Shown in pieces: positions 2 through 64,000 of a stretch of 64,000 nt of DNA. Under the pieces are notes generated by a model that ran no database searches, had not been told where the DNA came from, and saw only the letters and a program-made list of their open reading frames with translations. The position numbers were made by a program, and so were the translations under genes. The first letter of the stretch is position 1; the number at the start of each line of letters is the position of its first letter. This DNA comes from Macrostomum lignano (lineage: Eukaryota): positions 124,001 through 188,000 of the forward strand of contig NIVC01002129.1 of NCBI GenBank assembly GCA_002269645.1, written 5' to 3'.

Positions 2-562
2 AACAATAACTTGCGAGTTTGAAATGTTTTTAATATCGCCTGCCGACGAAATTTGGTGTAGTAGATCGTTTAAGTTGAAATAGTTGGCTGAGTTTGTACA
101 TGGTCTTGGAATGGCGGTTCCAACAATAATATTGTGGACAGTGTCCAAAAATCCTCGGATGCGCCTTCCCTTGTAAAAGGCCTCGATTCGAGGTTTGTCG
201 TAGCAGGTTGTTGTAGTATTTGATGGCAAGATGTTAAAGTGGTTGATCGGTGTACATTTATAGATTAGCAAATATCCGTAAACTGGAATTGCCAAGACAT
301 CTTCAATACCTGTGATTTTCCTAAAGGTCGTCGTGGGATTGGCATAATAGTTCTGTCTTGCGTAATTTAGGCTGGTTTCGTGCATTCGGCACGTTAGTTT
401 GACCATGGATCGATGCAGATAGTTCAGTTGCTTGTGTAGCTTATGTTCCATGGCGGCTAGTTTTGCTGCCAGAAGTCGTGCTGATACTAGAGAAGGCTTA
501 GGTAGGTCTCGCTTATGTCGTTCTATGACATCTTCTCTCTGATAGGTTCCATTTACTACCAT
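2..562 (-). CDS. Partial envelope-like glycoprotein, class III fusion type (herpes gB / chuvirus G-like); runs off the left edge and is 5'-disrupted
   Basis: Not in the ORF track because there is no stop in the window. Hand translation from ATG 562: MVVNGTYQREDVIERHKRDLPKP...KLAAMEHKLHKQLNYLHRSMVKLTCRMHETSLNYARQNYYANPTTTFRKITGIEDVLAIPVYGYLLIYKCTPINHFNILPSNTTTTCYDKPRIEAFYKGRRIRGFLDTVHNIIVGTAIPRPCTNS..., 187 open codons. It has a furin-type RHKR site, sequons NGT/NTT/NIS, a long helix then C..NP..G..C.P..CY..P..FL..II..C spacing as recalled for gB/chuvirus glycoproteins. A 10-bp tandem duplication (ccatttacta x2, 549-568) breaks the frame upstream. Confidence 0.62.
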   Translation of the reverse strand, partial: MVVNGTYQREDVIERHKRDLPKPSLVSARLLAAKLAAMEHKLHKQLNYLHRSMVKLTCRMHETSLNYARQNYYANPTTTFRKITGIEDVLAIPVYGYLLIYKCTPINHFNILPSNTTTTCYDKPRIEAFYKGRRIRGFLDTVHNIIVGTAIPRPCTNSANYFNLNDLLHQISSAGDIKNISNSQVIV

Positions 563-1416
563 TTACTAGTGGCTTGTAGGCTTCTTGGTTTGGCTTAGGT
601 GACTCAGTACCTCCGGGAGTCCTTGACTTTTATCAATTGGACAGGTATGGTCCCTCAGAGATTGGTCTTCTTATTTCTTCAGTGTCTTCTTAGAGACCGC
701 TCCGAGTCTGAATTTTTTACTTGAATTTTCACTTATATTTATAGCAAAATTTTGGAGAAAAACCGGTTTGGGATTGGGTATTTACTTAGGTCAAAAATGT
801 TTGATTAAGCGGTCATGCATGTTTGAGCATTACCAGATATGGAATTAAGCAAATAAAACTCACGAGAACCGGTTTTTTGATCAAATAAACGTCGGTCCTA
901 CGTAGGGCTCTGAGTCACTTCTGTTTGCATGTGACTCATTCTAAAATAGAATTTCTAAAAATAGATATGACTCATCATGACTCATTCTAAAATAGATTGC
1001 GAGTTTAAATTGATTTAGTTAGAATATTACTTTAAGTAGTGCGTTTTGTTATAACTTACTGTTCTCTACAGTGTGAAGTATATTATTATTAGTAAGTTTA
1101 TCTTGCTTAATACAACATCTAGATCTAGTTTTTTTCCACGATTTACATTAAAAACTACTTGTAGTAGAAACTTCTCAACCATTTGCTTTCCTGAATATCC
1201 AGGATTTTTTCCAGGATTTGTTTTCTAAGATTTTTCCGTAAAGCTTACTCATAGTAGTTTTTAATGTAAATCATGGAATATTATAAGTGTCAATATCAGC
1301 TTAGCTTAGTCCGCCGATGCCGTTAAGGTCCAGGTTTTTTTTCCACGATTTACAATAAAAACTACTTTTAGTAGAAGCTTCTCAAGTAGTAACTCCGAGT
1401 TTTTTCTTGAGAGTCG

Positions 1417-32674: not shown

Positions 32675-35600
32675 TCAGTCAGATTCATACTCGGATTCGC
32701 TCTCGGATTTGCTTTCGAATTCGCTCTCGAAATCGCTTTCCGGCGATGAAGATGGTGAACTCGATAGGTCGTTACCGGAACCACTGGACGCTGAAATAAA
32801 TCCAGGGTAGAAAGTTCATAAGTTTATTATTTATTCATTAAGTTTATTCTTAAGTCATAGATCATTTGCAAAAATTAAGTTTGTAAGTCTGAATTTCACA
32901 GTCTGAAAATGTGAACATGCTTTATGGGCTTTACCACGTGCTGTCTGCAGGCAGGAAATGCTGGTTGTAGTGGAATGAACTGCTTGACATTCTGAAGGGA
33001 AGGCTGCTAAGTGAGCTTCGAGTATCTGAAGAATGCCATTCTCTCTCATCGACAGTGCGGCAGCCAATGGACCATCTCGAGCTTCTACTTCCGTGCGCGC
33101 TTTGCGAGCCGCATCATTGAGAAATTGCAAAGTCCTCTCTGCTTCCGCAGCGACCAGACGCGACTCCTCCTGGATACGAAGGTACAGGTCTCGAAGCTTC
33201 ACAGCATGTACTTTTTGAGCTTGGTTTCTGATGCTCACAAGTTCCTCGAAGCCGAGTGATTCAGGCTTAATGAAGTGGCCTGGATTTAGTTGGTCAGTAG
33301 GATTCGCACTGTTAAAACTCGAGTAGATCGCTTTTGTTTTGGCAAGCAATTTGTTAAGAGAAACTCGAAGAAGCTTTTGCATGCGCTGTCCACGTTCTGT
33401 CCCCACATGCTCAATCAAATACCGGCGCTCGCAGGCAATTCCATAGAGCTTCTGAATGGCTTTAGATTTGGGCGAAGATGCTTTGGAATGAGCAGTTAGT
33501 ATAGCGAAAAGCTCCTGTCTCCAACCGGCTGCAGCGCAGAGAAAATCTTCCAGACTCACTAAAGAGGTCAGTTTGCAAGGTAAATCATTAATTCCTTAAA
33601 GGGTATCCAGACCCTCTATATTAACTACTCGCAGAGTAAACTCATTTAAATTTCTATTTTAAGTGCACCGTCAAAATCTTACTTAAAGAATTATTCTGGA
33701 GTCGAAAAGTCGAAAGCTCTTCTTGGAACTGCTGCATTGCTTTTCTCTCCACGGCTTTTCGGCCGATAAGCCAGGTAGCTAAAGTGAGATTTAAAATAAA
33801 GTGCATCAGTTAAGTTCTTATTCGTAGTTTTTTTTATCGCTTTTGTTGGGTTTCCACTATTTTGCGCAATTTCTACTGTATGTATAGCACTATGACTTAC
33901 TGATCTTTGTGATACACTGGAAGTTTATAGTATTCGCTAGATAGTTCAAAAATTCGCGACGGTTATCGTGGGCCATCTCTTACAACTGAGGGCCAAAACG
34001 CCGAAGCGTTGCCCAGACGAGCTCTACACTCTCACCATCTGTCAGGCCGACTGATTGAACAGAGCGTATACCATGTGAGAGTTGACAGCGTAGAACATGC
34101 CCATAGGAATGAAAAGCCGGAATGGCGAAAGATAGCCTTGAGTCGTTGAAGCGACCGGTTAGTTTACATCCGATGTCGTAGGATACGACGATTGGCACCA
34201 TTGGCGGAACATCCCGAAGCATTTGAGCAATCATTGTAGTGGAATAGTTTAGTCTAAAGATAAATTCAATTGCAAAAATCACGAAATGGTGCTGTAAGTT
34301 TTGAAATTTGGGAATATTTCCATATACTAAAAATGGTGTCGGTAGGTAGGTATGTGGGTAGGTATAGGTATGCTATCGATTTTAGATTGGTTCTAAAAAC
34401 AATTTACCGTTCACCAGTCGATGTCATATCGGCCAAATAAGTTATTGCAGAATGTCTGCAGGAACCAGAGAATGCACCAAAAACATCTAGCTTAGCGCTA
34501 TCTGAAGAAGTCGACAGACCTTGGCCTCTTCCACCTGCATTCCAGTTTGCACAGTGTCCTGTAGAGGGCGGACACTTCTCAGTGAGGTCGACGTCAAGAA
34601 AAAAGCCAGAATGAGCTGGTAGAGTGGCATTTCCAGCAGTTTTTCGATGGCGAAGACCAAAGCAGTCATCCATCAATAAAAAAACTGGCTCTTCACTAGC
34701 CGCATTCGTGTTGACCTGAATTTTGTGTAGAAGTCACGTTAATTTTTTATTACGCAGATTGCACAGGAAATAGAAAAGGAAGCATTTTGTAAAATACTCG
34801 TAAATTAAAAATAATGTTACCAAATAGCAAGCGGGGCATGATGCTTTCTCTTCCCACCGAAAGTTTTGAAGCACACGTCGAAATGATTTAAACGCGCCAG
34901 TCAAATTTAAGGCTCTAAAAATATCGAGCTTAAAAGTGGTACAGAAGTAAGAAATACACTGAAATACTCGTGTCGATAATAAGAAATTGTCAGTCAGGGG
35001 CAATGGTGCCTGAAAAACTTACTGATGGGGATTTGCGCATCCAAATTGACTCACGATAACGCTTAAAAGCCCAACAGAGAGATGATAAGGATGCAGTGCA
35101 GTTGCAATTAAGCGAGTCAAGTAGTAGTAGAAGGTCGACTGCAATAGCCGTCAGCATTTTAGAACATTCTGGTCTGGCTTGCAAAGGCCAAAATCCATGT
35201 ACCAGAAGTGCAGAATGGTACGTTGCACAGGAGCAAACTTCTAAATCTACTTGCATCTCACTTCCTAAATTGTGTTAAAAACATGGAAGCTTTTACCATC
35301 TAAATATACTAAATTAATATACTAAAAATGAAAGCAAAGATAGAGTTGTTTATAAGGCAAAATTTAATGTCCAAATAATTTTACCATCGTCTGTGATGAC
35401 AGTAACAGGAAATACGCCAGCTATTGTTGAATTGCAGCCACACATTCGAGCCAATCGCACATTCGGTTTGACAGCCTCAAAGAATTTGCCCTTGTATAAG
35501 GAGGTACATTTAAAAAGGTATAAAAATGTATGAACTTGAAATTTTAAGAATTATGCAAAATCATTCGTGAATGCCTTTACATTCCAATGGTGTACAATAT

Positions 35601-39312: not shown

Positions 39313-42311
39313 AGAGGTGTGCCTTTTGCGTCAGTGTGGGTGTACCGGCATATCTAGTATATTTCCGGTAACTGTTATCACCGAGGAAGGTATGTGTTGG
39401 CTTGCGAATGCATAAATAAACTGCTTTATAAGACCATAAAAGATCTCAGCCGGCGAGGGAGATGCTGTTCGTAATCTATGTTATACTGTAAACATATTTG
39501 TTGTTGTCTAGTACCTCTTTATCCTTCTGGAAATTTTGGAGCTAATTAGTAATAATTGAATGGGGGTAGTACCCTTATTATAAAACTATAGTTTTTATTG
39601 TATATTTCGCATCTACCGCCAGGCTACTTCCCTTAAATTTTTACGCGAAAGCTTATCACAAATGTAATTGGCTCATTTACAACCTTTACAAATTGAATTA
39701 TAGTGTTAAGTATGGCTAATTGTTTCTTCTTTCCAGTCAACGAGATTCCTATTAAAGTGGAGGTTTGCTCCTGCACTACCTACCATGAAGCACTGCTGAC
39801 CCACGGTTTCTGGCCAATCCAAGCAAGACCTGAAAACGCAATTAAGGCTGTTGACGGCCGTGGCCATTGGTTTGCTTCTTCTTATTGACTGTCTCAACTC
39901 CCAATGTACAGCCTCACTCTCCTCACTGTGTGCTGCACTGAGGCACTTTCGGAATTCAATGTGGATACCCACAACCTTGACGGTATGTTTTGTGGCTATT
40001 GTTTGGGTCATGTCATGAACTTTTATTTTCTTGTCTGAAGAGCCCCACTTTTGAATTCAGGTTGACCTTTTCCGAACACTCAACGTCAATGGATCATTTC
40101 GTGCTTTTCGAAGCGTTCTTCAGAGCTTACGATGGGGACAGAACGCGTCATGTCCGGCGTGTCATGTGGTACGGATTGTCTAATACTAACTCTGTGCTCC
40201 TTCATTTTGCTTCGTGTCTTGATTTTCCGTCATTGTCGTAGAAATAGTCATCAGTACAGCATTTGTAAAGCCGAATCTACTTTATGGTTCTGTAAAACTA
40301 CTAATTACAGTCTTTACCATAGCAACACACAGTTAGTTGATGGCAGTGCCCAACTCTATTTGTAGAAAAATGAAACATCCGATAATCCGTCACCAGTGTT
40401 TCTTATGATGGATGCGTGCTTTGGCATCCGCCATCGCAGGAACGCCGGTAAAGCTACTATGCCACCCGCTTCTGGCTTCTTTATCGACGTAGACCACAGC
40501 AATGGTGTTCAGCCTTCTGAGGGGCACTGCGCCAACTGGAGCGCCGGCGGTCGAGGCCAGGGTCTTACCAGCGGAGCTGATCGCAACAAATTGGATGTGT
40601 ACGGTTTATTTTGTGGCTCATGCCCACACTCGTTCATCAGGTACATGGAAGATGTGACTACTCCTGGCGAGCGGTAATTCCTTTCAGTGCTTTGCTGCGA
40701 GTACTAGTTTTCCTTTCTGATTTTTGAACGCCAGTTATTTTGCTTTTTTACAGCCTCAACTACAGCGAGTGCATGGTTCAGCAGATGCTGCGCGATATTC
40801 CTCCCCACGTTCCAATAATCGTATCTTACGATATAAGTTGCAAATTGGCTGGTCGATTCTGCGATCCACGATTAACTTTTGTCTTGCCGGCATTGCACGT
40901 TTATGGTCACGTTCTTCGTTGTCAGTTGTTGTTCGGCATTCGTGCCACCGAGTCTGTGGGCCTGATAGATGGCGAGAGCGTTGAGCGCATTTGGCCGCCA
41001 TTCCGCAGATTTGGACCTCAAGTAAAGGAGATGGCACAGGATAATCGTCGCAATTTTTTGAATTACGTCGCTGACACTATGAACTTCGCACGCATCATGT
41101 CGATCAGTTAGTATTTTATTTGTGTGAATTAATTCGTATGTCGTTGTGATATAGTATGTTTATATTTATTATTTTTTTGTATATTATCAATCTGAATGAA
41201 AAATTCATTTCCATCTATCCATTTTCAGCTGCTTGGTTGCAAAGTCGCCGAAAGGTTGATGAGATAGCATTCTTGCGCTTTGAGACAGAGTTCGCAAAGT
41301 TTTTGGAAGAAAGCAAAAGCACTCGTGAGTTTTTATGAAAAAAATGTAGACGCTAATACTGTACAAAAAATTTCATTACTAGACAGCACTTTTGAAACAT
41401 TAAATGAGGTTGCAGTGAAAAAAATCGAAGTAGTTTTTTTTACTTATTAGATTTGAGAGCGCGTTTCCATCCACCTTTTTAAGCAGGAGCTGCACTTTTC
41501 CTTTTCAGTAACTGTTGACGAATTCCTACAGAAGGCAGGAGAGTCGCGGGAGACAGTTTTGTCTTCCTTGAAGGCTAAACCCACAGCAGCAACCTCAAAG
41601 AAAGCTGAAGCCATCCGCAGCTTGTATCGTGTTGCATGCGAGCGCCAGTACCTAATTGACCATGCTGCAACTGAGCGTGGCCAGCGAATGAACCGACTGC
41701 TGACTGTAACGAACCAAAAGCTTCTGAAAAAGACCAGGAGCATTGTAGCGAAATTTAACGGTCTGCACCAGAGTGACCAACTTGACTATCAAGATTTCAT
41801 TTCCCCGAATTCTGAAGGATTTCAGCAGCTGCTGCACATTAATGGGGATATCGCACAGAAAGCTCGAGCTGTTAAGCTGCGAGACTTGTACTTCCGCTGT
41901 AAAGAGGAGTCACAACGAGTAGCAGCCGAAGTGAGGCGAGCATCATTTTTTTCGTTGATGCGCTACAAGTAACCCGCTCGCAGATTCAAAAGGCCAGAGG
42001 ATTACCGATTTCAACAATGCTTCACATGCGTGAAAATGGCATTTGTCGTTTAGTAAGATCTCATCTGTCAGCCTTTCCGTCCGAGTTCCCGATTCTCCAT
42101 GAAGCAGCTAATACCAGATGCGACAGTGAAATTATTGAATCAAGTGAGTATTTGCATTTATTAGCCAGTCTTGCAAATTCCGATTCTGTTTTTACATTAT
42201 ACGTAAAACTCAAAACACTTTTTTCTAGTGCCCCTTTCGGACTTCAGTAAGGACAGTGAAAGCTCTCAGGCAACAACAATATTATCAGATACCGACGAAG
42301 ACTATATCTAG
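39313..42311 (+). pseudogene. Outer KDZ transposase, 3' exons (frameshifted)
   Basis: 39313-39389 completes exon 3 (TEVCLLRQCGCTGISSIFPVTVITEE). From 39737: VNEIPIKVEVCSCTTYHEALLTHGFWP, with a frameshift near 39845. Then VDLFRTL..SCPACHV; FLMMDACFGIRHRR..GSCPH..PGER; VSYDISCKL..LPALHVYGHVLRCQ..GLIDGESVERIW; ACERQYLIDHAATERGQRM; acidic tail ending near 42311. Colinear exon-for-exon with 32675-35947. Confidence 0.9.
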
Positions 42312-50232: not shown

Positions 50233-52175
50233 CTAGTGTGAATTGAACCTTGGATCCAAGGGGACAAACATGGGAAAAGCATACAGATTCTGCTTGTAAG
50301 GCAAAACACAAGCTTTTCTGAAAACTTCAGTGAGGGGCAAATGCAACAAGTCAGGTGAGAGTGAAGATATGCTGAATATGTTCAGCTTCTTTGAATCAAC
50401 AGGATAGTTGTATACACTAGAATAGCCTTCATAACGCTGGCAAACAACTTCACATGACCCCTCAGAAGAAATAAAATGGCAAACACGGTAGCAATAGTTG
50501 TTCCGATCATAGAAATGGCAGTCATTGTCAGAATTAGAAAGTCTGACATTGTTAACAAAGCAACAATAAAATGCCTTCTGACCAATGCGTAGATTGATAT
50601 TAGAACATGGAAACTTAAAAGCAACATTAACATCAGCATGATTGGATGACTTTTTCTTACTAAATGTAATAGATTCATATATACGATTTGCACATTGAAC
50701 AAGAGGACGGCAACTGCCTCGTACCCAACTTTTTATCTGCTGCATATAATTCTCAAAAGGAAATGCACTGAAATTATCCAGACAACCAAAACGTAGACAT
50801 TCATGTGCCAAATGTGACAAGGAATGAATGCTATAAACAAGCATTTGGGAGCCATATACCTTTTTACAGCTACGAATAAAGTGAAACAGAAGCTGGTTGG
50901 CATATTGAATAAGATCAGAACTAGAAAGTGGGTCACACAAAATAAAGATAGCAGAATGAAGGAGTATAAAATTATGCGAAATCTTCTTGCTTAAGCCACG
51001 AGCATGAATTAAAGCAACTACTCCACTATACAACAGAAATGAACGATATTCAGTAGCCTTCCAAAAATTCAAACAACTGAGAGAGCGTGGCTTCCTTGAA
51101 AACTCACTAGGAAAAAATCCACGAAGAATAATCAAGATATTTGATACAGAGCTTGATAGCTGGGAACCAAATCGGGTATGCAAAGGTCCCCGGATCCAAA
51201 ACAACAAAAGGCGCCGCATAACACCAAGCAGAACCAAGTGCATATAATCATATGGAAATGAATATACCATGTCAATTGGTAGTGCTTCAAATGGACTGTC
51301 TCCACCAACATGATGATCAGGGTCACTTCTTCCACGAAATGATTCATCAGTTCTTGGTTGACAATTTAGCTCATCAAAGATCACTTGTTGTTGATACTCG
51401 CCTTGAATTGTACATTTATCGCAAGCTGAATATCCATTGTGTCCCTTGATACACTTCACAAATGCTCGAGCTGGACGGTCAGCAATTATCTTCTGAACAA
51501 CAACATAATCACTTAGGTCTTGAAGCTCAGCCACAAGGTCATGGAGAAATGGTCCAACATCAGGCTTGTCGGCTCCAAAGTACAAAGCAATTACAAATGG
51601 CTTCATTCCAGGAAAAGTTCCTAGAATTGTCCAAAACCCTTCTTTCTTACTTTTAAACAATGGCAAACCATCAATATGGATAGTAAGCTTCAACTTCACA
51701 TTTGAAAATCCATCTCTTCAACTTTAGGCAAATGACTATGAATGCCAAAGTAAGCATATTCTCCAGAACCAAGTTGGACTGTCTCAATTTGCCTTGGAGT
51801 CTGCAACAATGTTCGAGCCGATAGCGGTAGCCAAGGCATTGAAAAATGTAGCAAATGAATAAGACTATCTATAGCAGTAGATGACACATTAAACTTCAAA
51901 GCCCATTCTGCAAGTTGTTCTTCAGAAAGCTTAGTATCAGTCTCAGAATGAGATTCATTATCAGATTCAAGTACAAATTCTTCTGCATCTTCCAAAAGGT
52001 CATAAAATAGCTGCTGGTCATTATCAGCATCAGGATTATTTGCTTCAAAGGCCACTTCTTCCACAGACTCATCAGATTCAGACTCACTAGTAGACACATG
52101 CATATCTTCCAACAATGCATCAAATCTTCTTTTTGCAACTCGACGAGCAGCTCGTTTGGAACTAGCAGGATTCAT
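50233..52175 (-). pseudogene. EnSpm/CACTA-type transposase, split into two ORFs by one frameshift near 51700
   Basis: ORF 52175-51696 (..LAEWALKFNVSSTAIDSLIHLL..LPLSARTLLQTP..GEYAYFGI) followed by ORF 51699-50233 (IDGLPLFKS..FWTILG..ADRPARAFVKCIKGHNGYSACDKC..DYMHLVLLGV..RKPRSL..WKATEYRSFLLY..LDNFSAFPFENYM). These are recalled motifs of animal EnSpm-like transposases. The second frame has a TGA only a few codons upstream of the overlap. Confidence 0.85.
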
Positions 52176-54289
52176 GTTTGCAGTTCTGGAAAAATGGATA
52201 AGCCAATTAATATTCTTTTTATAGAAAATATGAAAATAAAAATGTAGTAGTATTACACTTAATTTTTCTTATTATATATATTGTCTTTTTAGTTCCATAA
52301 ACTAAATACAAGTATGAAAAAACTATACAACTTTATATATTATTATATTATTAATAAGTATTATAAATTTATAAAAACATATAAAGAAATTTCATTTTAA
52401 ATATTTAACAGGGCCTAAGCTTAGTCAAAAAATAAAAATATACCATATATATAAATTGATTAGATACCCAATTGCAAATTAAAGCCAAGTTAGAAAACTG
52501 TTTAAATTGAATTACTATTCTTATTTTTTATAATATATAAATATTATAACTGATAATAATGTAACAAAGAGGAAAAACAAATTGTAGACAAATTGTACAA
52601 ATATAGATGCCTATGGCATGTGGCATACTTTGGAGAAAAACTTGGTGGCATGGTACATGGGCTCCTTATGACTAAATAGATAATAAGGCTTTTCAATGCA
52701 TAAGTAGAGTCATATTTATTCCTACTTTTTACCTAGACAAATGCAAAGAAAACAAAGTCAAAAATGTATATAGTGTCTGGTGTGGCATGGCATTTGTTCT
52801 AAAAAATGGTGGTAAGCATCCATAGGCCTTTTGAGTTTATTCCAATACGGTTTATCCTATTAGTATGCATATTAATATAGTATTAATATAATAGCATAAA
52901 TTTGATTTTTTAAGACAAAAATTTATTTAAGCTTTTACCATAGATTTCATGAGTTGATACTTAGCCTTTGGACTGAATGTATAAAATTTTGCTATCCTTG
53001 GCATATTTTAAGTGGAAAAGATGGGCCTAGCTACATATTTGATTAGCTAGGCTTATCAATAGGCCTAGCAATCCTTGGCATACTTGAAGTGGAAAGGTAG
53101 CCACCACATAATACTAATACTAGGCCTAATAGCTAGGCCTATCATACATCAGTAGGGTTAGCCTAGCCCTAGGCCTAGTCTAATTTTGTAGAGCTATTAG
53201 GAGATTTATTAAAAAGTGAAAACTGGAACAAAACAAAATGTGATTTTGTTTATTTTAAAGTACAAATAGTCAATAAGTATGGAATATTCATTGCCAAACC
53301 GTTTTTGACTCTGAGTGCGATAGAGTAGGCCTAATTATATTGCTGACTGCAGACTAGGCCTACCACTACTGTGGACTGTATGCATAATGGCTTTTAATGC
53401 ATTGATAGAAAAAGGTGTTCCATTAATTAAAGTTCATAGCAATTGGAATATGCAGTGAAAAACTATAGGATATGGCAGATTGACTTGCACTTTCACACAA
53501 ACGCTCTTTGACAATCATAGAAATTGGAGACAGAAAGGAAGCACATGCTTTTGCGAATCTCACAAAACAGAATAACTTGCGCGCGAATCACTTTTGAATT
53601 AGCAAAGAGAGTGAAATAATTAAAACAATGTATTTTTATGATTTTCAAATATTTGCTTTTCAGGTCATTTGGACAGTCAAAAAATATATTAATGTATTAC
53701 TCTGCTGTTTCTATGCAAACTAAGAATCAAATTTTCCATAATACATGTGCACGTTACAAAACTAATCGCCAATTTAAAAAATGGCGATAATGAGGCGATG
53801 TCTGACATTTCGCAAAAATAATCCTTGTCGTAGATATACGGGTTGATGCAAAACAAATTTTGTTGCAATCTTTGTTCCTACAGGAACTATTCGGTAGGAA
53901 TTATATGACAGACAATTTTCGCCACTTTATATCGCTGCTATATCGAGAAGATATTGCCGGGCGAGCTATCGCCACTTATCGAGTGGCGACATGAGTGCGA
54001 TCATTTGGCGATATTCATGGTTACGTGGGTTATGTAGACCATGGCTACAGCTCTAGAGTCGCCAATTAAAATCAAGCTGTTCCTGATATTGGCTTCAATA
54101 TACAGTACGATGTAGATTTACATGTACTTGCGTTCATGCACACGTGCATATTACGAGCATATCGTATACAGTGTAGTCCTTTGGAGCCAAGGTGTATCTA
54201 TACATGTATGTACTTCCATTCATGTCTCCAATGAAAGTCGAGACGCTGATTTACATGTTAATTTCCAGCTCGTAGCTACCATACATGTA

Positions 54290-58692: not shown

Positions 58693-61600
58693 CTACTTCT
58701 TGCGTGGACGCAAAGTGAATCTCTTACAAGCTGATTCCTCTGTTACTTCTGTCTGCGTGGCGTTGGATTTGTGCAATCTGATTTTATGCGCATCATGTGT
58801 TGTGTTGCCATTTGTTTCTTCAGAGAATGGTTGAACTGCTATTGGTGGGCCTGACAATAGTCTCTTCAACCTATTGGCGTTTACTGTTCTAGCTTCCTCG
58901 TTCTGTTCATTTTCCGGTCTTTGAATTTCAACTGTGGAATCGCCTATCACTTTCCTGACGGTAAAGGGGCCTTCATAATTTGTGTCGAATTTTCCGTCCT
59001 TCACAGGTTTTTCCAAATATACGATGTCTCCTTCAGACAGTTTATGATCTTTTCTTCCTTTGTTCGCTTGCTCACTTTGTTTGAGACGCTCTTGAAGTAG
59101 AAAATTGCCTGCAACATCCCAACTCAATTTCAAGGAACTAGCTAGCTTCTTTACATAACTTGGGGCTTCGTCATAAACAGACACCTGTTCCTTTAGAACT
59201 CTTTCGGTGGGGGTCTTGTATGCATGGCCTAAAATGAGCTCATATGGGGAAGTTAGAAGATTTTTATTATAGCTTATGTTCAGGGCTAAAGTCGCCGTTG
59301 GCACGTATCTTGCCCATTCCGTCTGTGTTTCATGAATATATGTGGTCAGAACATTCTTTAAAAGTTTGTTGTAAAGTTCGACTGCATTCGCATGCGGAGT
59401 GTAATAGCTTGTATAGACGATCTCACAGCCAATCATCACCTTCATTTCTTTCATCTGAGCACTAGTGAAGTAGCTTCCATTGTCTGTTATTATTCTTAGT
59501 TTGTTTACAAGCACTTCCGTTGTTGGTTTTCGAATCGGAATTGCAAAAGCAAATTTTGAGAAGCAATCCTGCACTGTCAATATGTAATTAAATTCATGTC
59601 CTTCAACTTCTGACGTTACGAGCTTTCCCCGACCGCTTTGTACTCAAACATGTGTGACAACTTCTTACGTACTTCTGCATGTCCTGCCGCATTGAATTCC
59701 AATAGTAATGTCGCGCCATGCGCTCTAACATTTCTGCCATCCGAGATGTCCTGATAGTTTATCCTCATGATAATGTCGTAACAGTGCGAGCTGATACACT
59801 TTTGGAACAACCAATTGAACTCCAGTAATGCTTTCCCGATACAGCGTGTTTCCTTCCATCCTGTACTGATGAATATTCTTCCTGATAAATCTATCCTCTT
59901 TCGATTTCCCATTCGGTAAGTCTCCACCTCCATCACCTTAATCAATTTGCTCAGAGAGGAGTCTTTCCTCTGTTCTTGCTGTATCTTCTGTGTCGATGGA
60001 ACAGGATGTATTAAGTTGATTTCGTCTACGTCTGCTGGTGTAAGTCGGCTTAAATAATCAGCAATTGCATGCTTCGTCGAGCTTCCTGGACAGTAAGTTA
60101 TCTTCATCTGGTATTCAGAAAGAAACAGAACTGATCTCGTTACTCGTGAGTTTGTTTCCATAATACCTCTATCTTTTATTATCGTCAGCAACGGCTTGTG
60201 ATCGACTTGCACCGTAAATCGAGCTCCAAAGAGTAGCCTGTGAAAGAATTTTACTGCTGAAACAACTGCCAGTAGTTCCCTCTCGGTGACTGAATACCGA
60301 GTTTCTGCCGATTGTAATGTCTTGGAATAATAGGATACAACTCTCTCTCTCTTCCTTCATCATCCTTTTGCGTCAAAACTGCTCCCAATGCGACATCTGA
60401 TGCATCTGTTACTAGTTTATATTCTTTTCTTACGTCTGGAAAAGCTAACACGACGTCTTCTTGTAAACATCTCTTCAGACGATCAAAAGCCTCTTGACAC
60501 TTTTCTGTCCAAGTGAATTTCTTTGGCTGTGATTTCTTTCGCAGAAGCTGATATAATGGAGCCGAAATCATGCTAAAATTTTTCACATGTCTGCGGTAAA
60601 ATGTCGCAGCTCCCAAGAATCTTTGCAACTGTTTTTCGTTCTTGGGTGTGGGAAAGTCAATTATTTTTGTCCTTAGGCCCTGCTGCATCGCGATGCCAGA
60701 TTTACTTAGCACAAAGCCTAAATACGGCAATTTGTCCTTGGCAATTGCAGACTTCTTAGCTGATAGTTTCAGTCCCAAACTGCGCAGTCGCGTGAACAAA
60801 TCTTTTAAAGCTTTATACATCTCGTCGAACGTGCTCGCTGTAAGCAGTAGATCATCAACGTATCCGATAGTATTTTTGAGACCGGCAACCAACATATTTG
60901 TCACCTTTGACATATATATCGGACTAACATTTAATCCTTGTGGTAGGCGCGTAAATTGATATTGCGAACCTGTATACGTCGTGAAGGCGGTTAGATGTCG
61001 ACTATACTCATCCAATCCAATATTAAAGAATGCATCCTTAATGTCAAAAACACAAAAATACTTCGTGTTCTGTAGTCGGCTCATCATGTCCTGGATTTTT
61101 GGAAGACTCTGAGCAGGTTGCCTGAGCATGCGATTTACTAGTCGAAAGTCAACTATAAATCTGAAGCGGCCATCTTTCCTTTTCACAAGAAGCGTTGGCG
61201 ATGAAAAACAGGAGTCCGACGGTTCGATTACCTTTGCCTTGAGCAATTTAGCGATCTCATCGTCATATGCAGATTCTAGCTTCATTGGCAAAGGATAGGG
61301 TCTCCGATTGATTATTCCTTGGCCTGGTTTAACTTCCAATTTGACGCTTGGTCCTGTCCATTTCCCAATATCCGAATCATGTCCGGAAAACACGTCAGAG
61401 TATTCCAATATAAGTCTATGCAGTTCTTCTGTCTGTTGCTGATTCAAATCTTCGCCTTTTTCTATCAGATTCAATTTTTCTTCTGGGGTTAGCCTCTCCT
61501 TTTCTTCTGTACAGATATAATCGTGCTGTGCCGTTTGCTCCACCAAGTCCCTTGTTCGACCAAGCTTCGTTCCTCTAACCAGCTGAATTTCTTCTTGGCG

Positions 61601-61762
61601 ATGATTCATTATGGAAAGAACCATTTGATCATGCTCTACCTTGTGGTTCACCAAAACTGGCCACATTTCGTATCCATTTCTTTCAGCATTGAATTCATTC
61701 GGTTCGATCCATAAAGTTCCTCGATCCACTTGTGCCAAAATTTTGACTGGTACTTTCATCAC
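58693..61762 (-). pseudogene. pol: Gypsy/Ty3 pol (RT-RNase H-integrase), frameshifted, 5'-truncated
   Basis: RPYPLP, SPTLLVKRKDGRFRFIVDFRLVN, DIKDAFFNI, RLPQGL, YVDDLL, FLGAATFYRR, TDASDVALGAVL, VDHKPL, QDCFSKF, ITDNGSYF, YTPHANAVE, YEGPFTV. Three ORF pieces (61762-60251, 60212-59616, 59580-58693); part of the integrase core appears deleted. Confidence 0.92.
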
Positions 61763-61778
61763 ACTATGCGCAGGAATT

Positions 61779-64000
61779 CTAATATTCTCGATATATTAGA
61801 TATATATATAGCTTCATGGCGGCTTTGTACTGACGGTCTCTGTTCCTGACCGTCTTTGCTGCAGCCTGCGGCTTGACTCCTGGAATGCCGTCTTGGACTG
61901 GTCTCCCGAACATCAGGTCGGCTGGGGCGACTCCTGTGGCCGTGTGCGGAGTGCTGCGGTACGCGGCGAGCCACTCCTGCAATGCCGTCCTCCAGTCGGT
62001 TTTTCGGGCGTTGGAGATGCGGAGCAGCTTGTTCAGGGACCTGTTGATTCGCTCGGTAATGCCATTGGCCTCGGGATGGTACGGTGTGATGCGCCGGTGG
62101 CTGATTCCGTGGCTTGTGACGAAACTCCTGAAGGCTTCTGATGTGAATGTCGGACCGTTGTCCGTCACGATTTGCTGGGGAATCCCGAAGGTCGCGAAGA
62201 CCTGCTGTAACTGTCTGGTGGTGCGGTCAGCTGTGATCGACTTCATCGCCACGACGATGGGGTAGCGCGAGTAGTGGTCTATGATCACCAGGAAATGTCG
62301 ACCGTTGGCAGGTCCAAGAAAGTCGATGCCGATAGTGGACCAGGCAGACTCTGGCAGCTCAGTCAGTTGCAGTGGGGCTGCCGAAACTTCCGCTTGATGG
62401 TTGGTGGCCGCACATTCCAGGCACTGTGCTACCAGTTGCTTGACCTCAGCTGACATTCCGGGCCACCAGACCTTGGAGTTGAGTCGGCGCAGTGTTTTGG
62501 TCTCGCCTTGATGTCCTTGATGAGCCAGCTGCAGGACAACGGGCCGCTGGGCTTTTGGGATTACCAATATTTGGTCTCGCAGCAGAACGCCAGAAGCCTC
62601 GGTCAACTCGTGCCTGGCGGCGTGCAGTCGTCGGATGCTGTCGTCCCGCAGATCCCAATTGCCTGTTCTCAACGATGACAGCACAGTCGATAGAATGGCA
62701 TCACGGGCCGTGGCTTCCCGGACTTGCTGCAGGGACAGGCCTCTCGGCGTCGCCGCTTGCGCGATGCTGCCGATGAAGTTTGTGTCCAGGATCTCGCCGA
62801 TGTTGATCGATGTCGGAGCGGGCTCTGGCTGCCGGCTGAGGATGTCGCTCGGGTTGAACGGGCCTGGCCGATAGATGACGCTGAACTGCATGTCCTGGAT
62901 GCTGAGCGCCATGCGCTCGATGCGTGGAGGTGGGCGCGAGCCGGGCTTGAGCATGAAGGTCAGCGGCTTGTGGTCGGTGACGACAGTAAAGTTGGCGGCG
63001 CCGCTGAGATAGTGTCGAAATTTCAGGCAGCCGAACTTGATTGCGAGAGCCTCCCGTTCCGTCTGTGAGTACCTCGACTCGACTGCCGATAGGGCTCTGC
63101 TTGCGAATGCAACCGGCTTGGATGAGCCGTCGGACTGAATCTGGCAAAGAATGGCGCCGAGTCCGATGTGGCTGGCGTCGACAACGAGTTCGGTATGCCG
63201 GTGCTTGTCGAAGAAGACCAGTGTGCTGTCGACTGCGATGCGATCTCGGACTTCTTGAAAAGCCTTGGCCTGCTGCTCGCCCCACTGCCAGCTTGCACTC
63301 TTCTTGGTCAGGTCCCGCAACGGCTTCGTCATGTCCGCCAGGCCTGGCATGAAGCGACTGACAAACGTAACCAGACCGAGGAAGGAGCGGACTTCCGAGG
63401 CGTTCGTTGGCTCTTTGAAGCTTTTGATCGCCGACACCTTGGCTTCAGCTGGCTGGATCCCTTTTGCCGACAGTCGCATGGCCAGGAAGTTGACCTCCGG
63501 CACCGCAAATTTGCACTTGGACGGGTTGAGAGTCAGGCCGTGTCCCTAAAGACGCTGAAGGCAGCTGACTAGGCGACTGTTGTGCTCCTGGATGTCCCGG
63601 GCATACACAATGATGTCGTCGTGCACCCATCTCACTCCTGGCAGGCCGCTGAGTACTGTAGACATCACACGCTGTAGAATTTCTGAAGCCGACGTGAAAC
63701 CCATACAGAGGCGCGTGAGCCTCATTAAGCCCAGTGGTGTCGAGAAGGTCAGAAACTTGCGTGACTCCTGATCGACCTTGATTTGGTGAAAGGCTTTATT
63801 GATGTCTAGCTCCGAGAAGAAGTGTGAACCGGCCATTTCGTCTGTGACCTCTTCAAAGGTCGGAATCGGCTGCTTCTCCGGCACTACGTATTGATTGAGG
63901 TCTCGAAGGTCTTGGGTGATTCGCACCTGGTTCGGAGTGCTTTTTGGTACCACTACCATTCTAGCGACCCATTCGGAAGGCTCAGATACTCGCTCGATGA
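61779..64000 (-). pseudogene. pol: Second, GC-rich Gypsy pol (RT-RNase H-integrase) with one in-frame stop; runs off the right edge
   Basis: SEWVARMVVVPK, DLRDLN, LDINKAFHQ, RLCMG, WVHDDIIV, then RL*GHGLTLNPSKCKF (TAG at 63546-63548, same frame on both sides), FLGLVTF, VDASHIGLGAIL, TDHKPL, AHQGHQG..WWPGM..C..C, IDFLGP, VTDNGPTF, YHPEANGITER. Truncated near 61810 before any 3' LTR. Confidence 0.93.

Follow-up and report, generated by a model that had tools for sequence, protein, structure and literature searches.

A gB-type env fragment at the left edge of the window

The window analysed here is a 64,000-nucleotide stretch of the Macrostomum lignano genome (G000:C2129:124001-188000, contig NIVC01002129.1), and the locus of interest lies at its left edge. 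An earlier note on this DNA, made from the sequence alone, had described 187 open codons running off that edge, and the frame is found on the minus strand at positions 2-562. Its translation contains all of the motifs listed there: an RHKR furin-type site (aa 15-18; positions 509-520, minus strand), three N-glycosylation sequons (N4, N115 and N179) and a Cys/NP/CY/FL pattern made up of C58, N75-P76, C103, C120-Y121, F138-L139 and C155. A basic motif occupies the same place across the family described below, and the protein is presumably cleaved there. Positions 2-560 (minus strand) encode the middle part of a gB-type Env, starting shortly ahead of the furin site and reaching into domain IV, with 98% identity to aa 935-1120 of a 2,503-codon copy elsewhere in the genome (G000:C717, hereafter C717). 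The long helix that the note had predicted corresponds to fragment aa 27-74 (positions 341-484, minus strand) in an AlphaFold model of this 98% identical copy. Based upon the helix at 325-372 of the model, the invariant alignment columns and the alignment to EBV gB, it matches the long central helix of gB domain III, carries the invariant C58 and is followed by a conserved (N)P.

Searched alone, the fragment matched the Pfam family PF24664 (Monjiviricetes_fusion, E 5e-6) at 25.2 bits, below the curated cut-off of 27, and a sequence search of the PDB returned nothing at E 5 or below. It has at least 146 matches in the genome (a lower bound, with 150 of 151 candidates scored). In the search for intact, pol-linked copies that the note had suggested, 16 of these matches were found in open frames of at least 2,400 codons. 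The genome matches, together with the Pfam match, indicate that the fragment is more than a chance open frame.

A deletion joins the env fragment to a truncated LTR

The sequence upstream of the fragment is a 5' LTR (positions 567-1070, minus strand), which starts with TGTAGAG at 1070, keeps 504 of its roughly 617 bp and was recognized by its match to the element's own 3' LTR; across these 504 bp the two differ by two single-base gaps and by no substitution. Beyond it, at 1071-1074, lies a 4-bp target-site duplication, ACAC on the element strand, whose second copy follows the 3' LTR at G000:C2129:117580. The window copy, flanked by this duplication, spans 7.5 kb, and its LTR pair, free of substitutions, marks the insertion as very young. 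Because positions 567-1070 are the 5' LTR, the codons upstream of the fragment are LTR sequence. The earlier note had read a 10-bp duplication at 549-568 as a frameshift, the removal of which would add about 20 codons up to a TAA at 630-632. Both the tandem repeat and the TAA are present, but there is no env frame upstream for the repeat to shift, and the added codons belong to the LTR rather than to env.

The 10-bp repeat is instead the scar of a deletion that joined the LTR to env. At this junction (549-568, minus strand), which occurs once in the genome, LTR homology stops at 567 and env homology starts at 560, with a 6-base insert at 561-566 between them. The insert copies bases beside both breakpoints, each time after the same TA, which accounts for the apparent 10-bp duplication and for an in-frame ATG; the first Met of the fragment frame was thus created by the junction. 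In total, about 3.2 kb is deleted, fusing the 5' LTR directly to mid-env; what should follow the truncated LTR, from the primer-binding site through gag to the first half of env, is gone. Both LTR ends, the purine tract and the target duplication are retained. Past the junction the frame continues for 1,566 codons, encoding the rest of Env, a transmembrane helix, protease, reverse transcriptase (RT), RNase H and integrase, with 98.6% identity to a full-length copy over 1,539 aa. The protease begins about 640 bp to the left of the window in the same frame as the env fragment, so the statement in the earlier note that no pol is adjacent holds within the window but not just past its edge. Extending the contig leftward, as had been proposed, located the transmembrane helix, purine tract and LTR as well as pol. 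Further frame changes are found near the integrase C-terminus and in the first of two accessory genes after pol. The window copy therefore lacks the intact three-gene coding capacity that other copies have and, with neither primer-binding site nor gag, is likely a dead end.

A second copy of this insertion, in the same flanking sequence, is found at G000:C262, which likely represents the allele or a chromosomal duplicate. It retains the end of the LTR, the primer-binding site, gag and the early part of env, which implies that the deletion in the window copy postdates integration. The C262 copy carries damage of its own: pol has a gap of 310 bp, and env is interrupted by 3.5 kb of inserted DNA (G000:C262:220240-223800, L108). 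This insert, likely a DNA transposon, is bounded by terminal inverted repeats of 399 bp and contains two ORFs, one of 349 codons and the other of 394. The deletion in the window copy would have arisen in the already integrated DNA, through an end-joining event that left a short templated insert; such inserts are typical of polymerase-theta end-joining. In four other independent runs, contigs follow env sequence past 560 and LTR sequence past 567, with no junction-bridging contig among the matches listed; this one junction could therefore stem from the assembly or be private to the sample.

The fragment derives from a Ty3/gypsy element with Gag, Env and Pol in one frame

Longer copies of the element encode Gag, Env, protease, RT, RNase H and integrase in a single frame of about 2,500 codons. 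In C717, a CCHC knuckle (258-273) is followed by the env match (965-1092), protease (1333-1421), RT (1658-1817), RNase H (1882-2014) and integrase (2109-2281), which places env between gag and pol in one Ty3/gypsy frame. The Pfam families matched by the pol regions of four polyproteins are gypsy-type (RT_RNaseH, RT_RNaseH_2, Integrase_H2C2 and Asp_protease_2), and no Pao family is among them. A hydropathy scan of C717 shows hydrophobic stretches at 617-634 and 1217-1244 bracketing the ectodomain; such stretches flank both sides in four of five polyproteins, and in the fifth only the C-terminal one is detected at the threshold used. Members of the family have TG...CA LTRs, a primer-binding site, a polypurine tract and a short target-site duplication. 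LTR pairs were found in 18 of the 33 regions tested, all at least 99% identical. Eleven pairs have a 4-bp target duplication and one a 5-bp duplication; three were unscored, and in three our script found none, among them C262, where ACAC is seen on manual reading, and a pair at a contig end. Judged from these sequences, the family is young and multi-copy.

Together with the gB comparisons below, these data lead us to conclude with a probability of about 0.92 that the fragment is the gB-type class III env domain of a Ty3/gypsy element encoding Gag, Env and Pol in one frame, and that in this copy a deletion removed the primer-binding site and gag along with the first half of env, leaving it likely immobile and without a working fusogen.

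Elements of this layout have been described. HSV/gB-type Env in GAG-ENV-POL order is reported in elements from Nematoda, Bryozoa and Platyhelminthes (Chary and Hayashi, eLife 2026, PMC13524379), and the supplement available with that paper lists Platyhelminthes_Rhabditophora_Mlig_errantivirus_2, with 16 copies and the primer-binding site TGGTGATCTCGC. This element shares with the present family the Env type, the gene order and the primer-binding site, and the LTR length (864 bp) and LTR spacing in its row of the supplement agree with those of our C995/C2112 subfamily. That subfamily and the window copy group together at 100/99 in the RT and env trees (the RT tree contains no named reference clades), with 81% identity in RT and 66% over the fragment. 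The window copy differs in its LTR of about 617 bp, against 864 bp, and in its internal deletion; it is a broken member of a subfamily neighbouring the published one. The suggestion in the earlier note that the lineage may be undescribed is for the most part contradicted by this comparison: the gene order is already published in PMC13524379, and the lineage is largely described. The available portions of PMC4604429 and PMC12801592 contain no passage on the env of this element.

Env is related in sequence and predicted fold to herpesvirus gB

Among 14 natural env copies, which are 24-94% identical to the first, 12 cysteines are invariant. When a profile of these copies was compared with the PDB, herpesvirus gB made up the top 24 of 28 matches (best, EBV gp110 at E 4e-14), and the profile aligned the helix and the NP, C and CY motifs of the fragment to EBV gB. 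An AlphaFold monomer model of the C717 ectodomain, built from a 75-row alignment, has a pLDDT of 78 and a pTM of 0.54, and in a fold search against the PDB herpesvirus gB filled all of the best 33 rows (best E 1.1e-21), with a TM score of about 0.47 and an rmsd of 11-15 A; these scores leave the arrangement of the domains uncertain. Thus, the profile and fold comparisons that the earlier note had proposed both gave herpesvirus gB as the best match in the PDB, in agreement with its assignment to the class III, gB-like fusogens. Its label "chuvirus-like" fits less well: a viral structure library gave Nyavirus G (nyamivirus), the G of a rhabdo-like virus and herpes gB as its best rows, and no chu-like name appears before rank 17. 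The likeness to gB of EBV (gp110), KSHV and HSV-1 extends over the class III fold, the long central helix, the C...NP...C...CY..P...C pattern and a furin site before domain III. In contrast to gB, the element's ectodomain of about 580 aa lies inside a polyprotein that encodes no gH/gL partners, and identity is only about 13%.

The env profile matched 479 proteins in protein databases at E 0.001 or below, and a protease, RT or integrase follows env in the same chain in 15 of 21 relatives scanned, which were picked mostly by length from 150 of the 479 matches. One such relative is named from the nematode Globodera rostochiensis and has env before protease and RT. A word-indexed protein search with the env region gave one match among 2,312 candidates. 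Among named proteins, the closest come from Macrostomum lignano, in keeping with this flatworm as the host. In the env tree, relatives from outside this genome group in a clade that excludes its ten copies, at a point where long branches meet. Certain non-canonical nematode ERVs reportedly carry a nyamivirus-like env in one continuous frame. Like the family here, they have Env before pol in a Ty3/gypsy element (Sacco et al. 2022, as described in PMC13524379); they differ in host phylum, and the non-local relatives form their own env-tree clade.

In a related lineage of this genome (G000:C1884, C270, C1695 and C695; L042, L030, L046 and L056), a mucin-like stretch of about 250 aa, rich in Thr, is inserted immediately ahead of the Env furin site and could act as a glycan shield. 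Three database relatives (P0018, P0022 and P0094) have two protease-like domains, placed in P0018 one before and one after env.

Double-RING genes lie between pol and the 3' LTR

Two double-RING ORFs follow pol in the window copy, just left of the window (G000:C2129:118452-119812, minus strand; L016 3852-5212). Across the family, accessory genes of this kind lie between pol and the 3' LTR and encode proteins of about 200 aa with two tandem RING-like fingers and a helical domain. Their number varies: C3126 has none, C717, C583 and C2112 have two, C391 has three, and C4009 has seven RING-like pieces within 8.5 kb after one pol. The ORFs contain the C3HC4 RING motif, Pfam RING is matched in 14 of 16 proteins, and the domain is matched in the PDB by SIAH1, TRIM21 and RING1B. 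These similarities suggest that the genes likely encode ubiquitin ligases; ICP0 is a viral RING E3 ligase.

Searches turned up no homologue spanning the whole protein. Its model has a pLDDT of 93, and the viral structure library contained no full-length fold match at E 0.001 or below. A PDB-wide fold search likewise gave no full-length match, its best Z of 6.1 reflecting a common helical arrangement. Homologue searches from a single sequence and from an alignment found none among 47 and 616 candidates of near length, which is no proof of isolation, and the best score in an atlas search, 0.83, serves as a lead only. Nei-Gojobori dN/dS is 0.21 for the first RING gene. For the second, the comparison of the window copy with C583 gives 1.2, but with just 8 non-synonymous and 2 synonymous changes the value cannot be interpreted and lends no support to selection. 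The second RING gene and the LTR differ between element bodies that are otherwise 98% identical, which points to cassette exchange.

RING does not appear in the main text and seven supplements of PMC13524379, figures aside, and literature titles and abstract openings yielded no RING or E3 genes in LTR elements. Thus, the zero to several double-RING genes after pol, together with the mucin-like Env insert of the related lineage, may be new. In the portion available of a study of bdelloid rotifer LTR retrotransposons (PMC5408684), non-env accessory ORFs likewise lie between pol and the 3' LTR; the cargo here differs in its two tandem RING-like fingers and helical domain, and in its variable copy number.

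A distant gag-env-pol lineage (G000:C1189; L032:1299-2096, minus strand) has a 266-codon non-RING ORF after pol, with a weak Pfam match. The family also includes a 6.9-kb non-autonomous derivative that retains gag and both RING genes and in which early env runs in frame into the end of integrase. It has six matches in the genome (C301, C352, C525, C1192, C2828 and C2869; L104-L106 and L117-L119); in the five copies checked, the LTRs are near-identical and the 4-bp target duplications differ from copy to copy. Its joint is present in three of the four other runs.

How unbroken copies might work

Unbroken copies could function as follows. Gag would be made in the cytosol until a signal sequence within the chain, at aa 617-634 and preceded by a basic patch, directs Env into the ER, where signal peptidase would release Env from Gag. 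Env would be glycosylated in the ER and then cut by furin at RHKR. The helix at aa 1217-1244 would stop transfer and return protease, RT, RNase H and integrase to the cytosol, with Pol staying tethered to the Env tail until cut by the element's own protease. Particles leaving the cell by budding would carry Env trimers and enter a different cell by fusion, the target probably being a stem cell or a germ cell. A single frame would yield Gag, Env and Pol at 1:1:1, which counts against this explanation; one might speculate that the 6.9-kb derivative supplies extra Gag. In its fullest form, the family would be a still-infectious retrovirus-like agent of a regenerating flatworm, with Gag, a gB-type fusogen and Pol threaded through the ER membrane as one chain, with rapidly duplicated and swapped double-RING ligases destroying host restriction factors as retroviral accessory genes do, and with a related lineage bearing a mucin-like shield beside the furin site. 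We offer this picture tentatively and regard it as possible rather than probable.

By the Nei-Gojobori method, dN/dS for env in unsaturated pairs is 0.082 (C717/C583) and 0.054 (C717/C391), compared with 0.013 for RT and 0.40 for the Gag-Env spacer; values between distant subfamilies are saturated. The two halves of the ectodomain have values of 0.05-0.11, and both are thus under strong purifying selection. Env could alternatively be kept as a membrane anchor or particle-assembly scaffold, with the element moving inside one cell and no cell-to-cell infection. The 6.9-kb derivative has spread without the second half of env and most of pol; it would need help in trans, so its own Env must be dispensable. 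Yet the purifying selection covers the ectodomain, its cysteines and the furin motif, beyond what an anchor would need, and we consider a scaffold role unlikely.

The fragment might also be a free-standing endogenised viral glycoprotein (from a herpes-, chu- or nyamivirus) or a host-domesticated fusogen. The fold matches to nyamivirus, rhabdo-like and herpes glycoproteins and the Pfam match to Monjiviricetes_fusion are what such a gene would show, and the junction does set an ATG in frame with 1,566 codons. However, the fragment shares its frame with the protease, RT, RNase H and integrase and sits in an LTR-bounded insertion that has a target duplication, the frame is nearly identical to that of a full-length copy, the insertion is very young, and neither the signal sequence nor the N-terminal half of the ectodomain is present, all of which make this origin highly improbable; as a free-standing viral gene it is ruled out by the in-frame pol and the LTRs. 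Of the two origins offered in the earlier note, an endogenised fusogen or the env of an invertebrate retroelement, the second is the one that holds. The note had further named some BEL/Pao and Gypsy elements, with Tas and Anakin as examples. In a BEL/Pao element of that type env would follow pol, and gB- or chuvirus-like env genes are known from BEL/Pao elements (PMC13524379, in the part available), but the pol matches the gypsy-type Pfam set, env lies upstream of protease, and the published RT phylogeny places the matching sister element among Ty3/gypsy, so that a BEL/Pao carrier is scarcely credible.

The fragment alone carries little weight, since its element is broken and of a kind already published. 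The Ty3/gypsy family to which we assign it is useful, being young and multi-copy, with Env under strong selection and a host flatworm in which RNAi and transgenesis are available; the role of gB-type Env in non-insect gypsy elements could be tested in this host. If the RING genes do encode ligases directed against host defence, retrotransposons would have in them a counterpart of the accessory proteins of viruses.

Other features of the genome and the window

A 70-kb stretch at G000:C2121:1-70000 (L110-L116) is dense with copies and 3' fragments of several subfamilies, the listed matches all lying on one strand. It could be a uni-strand piRNA cluster or a hot spot of nested insertion, and similar stretches occur at C1130 and C87. 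No tRNA gene was found in the window. Two similar, helical-looking ORFs of 246 and 171 codons, without Pfam matches, lie at 32855-33595 (minus strand) and 41457-41972 (plus strand). At 50233-52268 (minus strand) are ORFs of 494 and 190 codons, the longer of them without a Pfam match, which we take to resemble a CACTA/EnSpm-type transposase. Finally, two fragmented gypsy-type pol regions with RT, RNase H and integrase, unlinked to the env fragment, occupy positions 58693-61795 and 61779-63998 on the minus strand.
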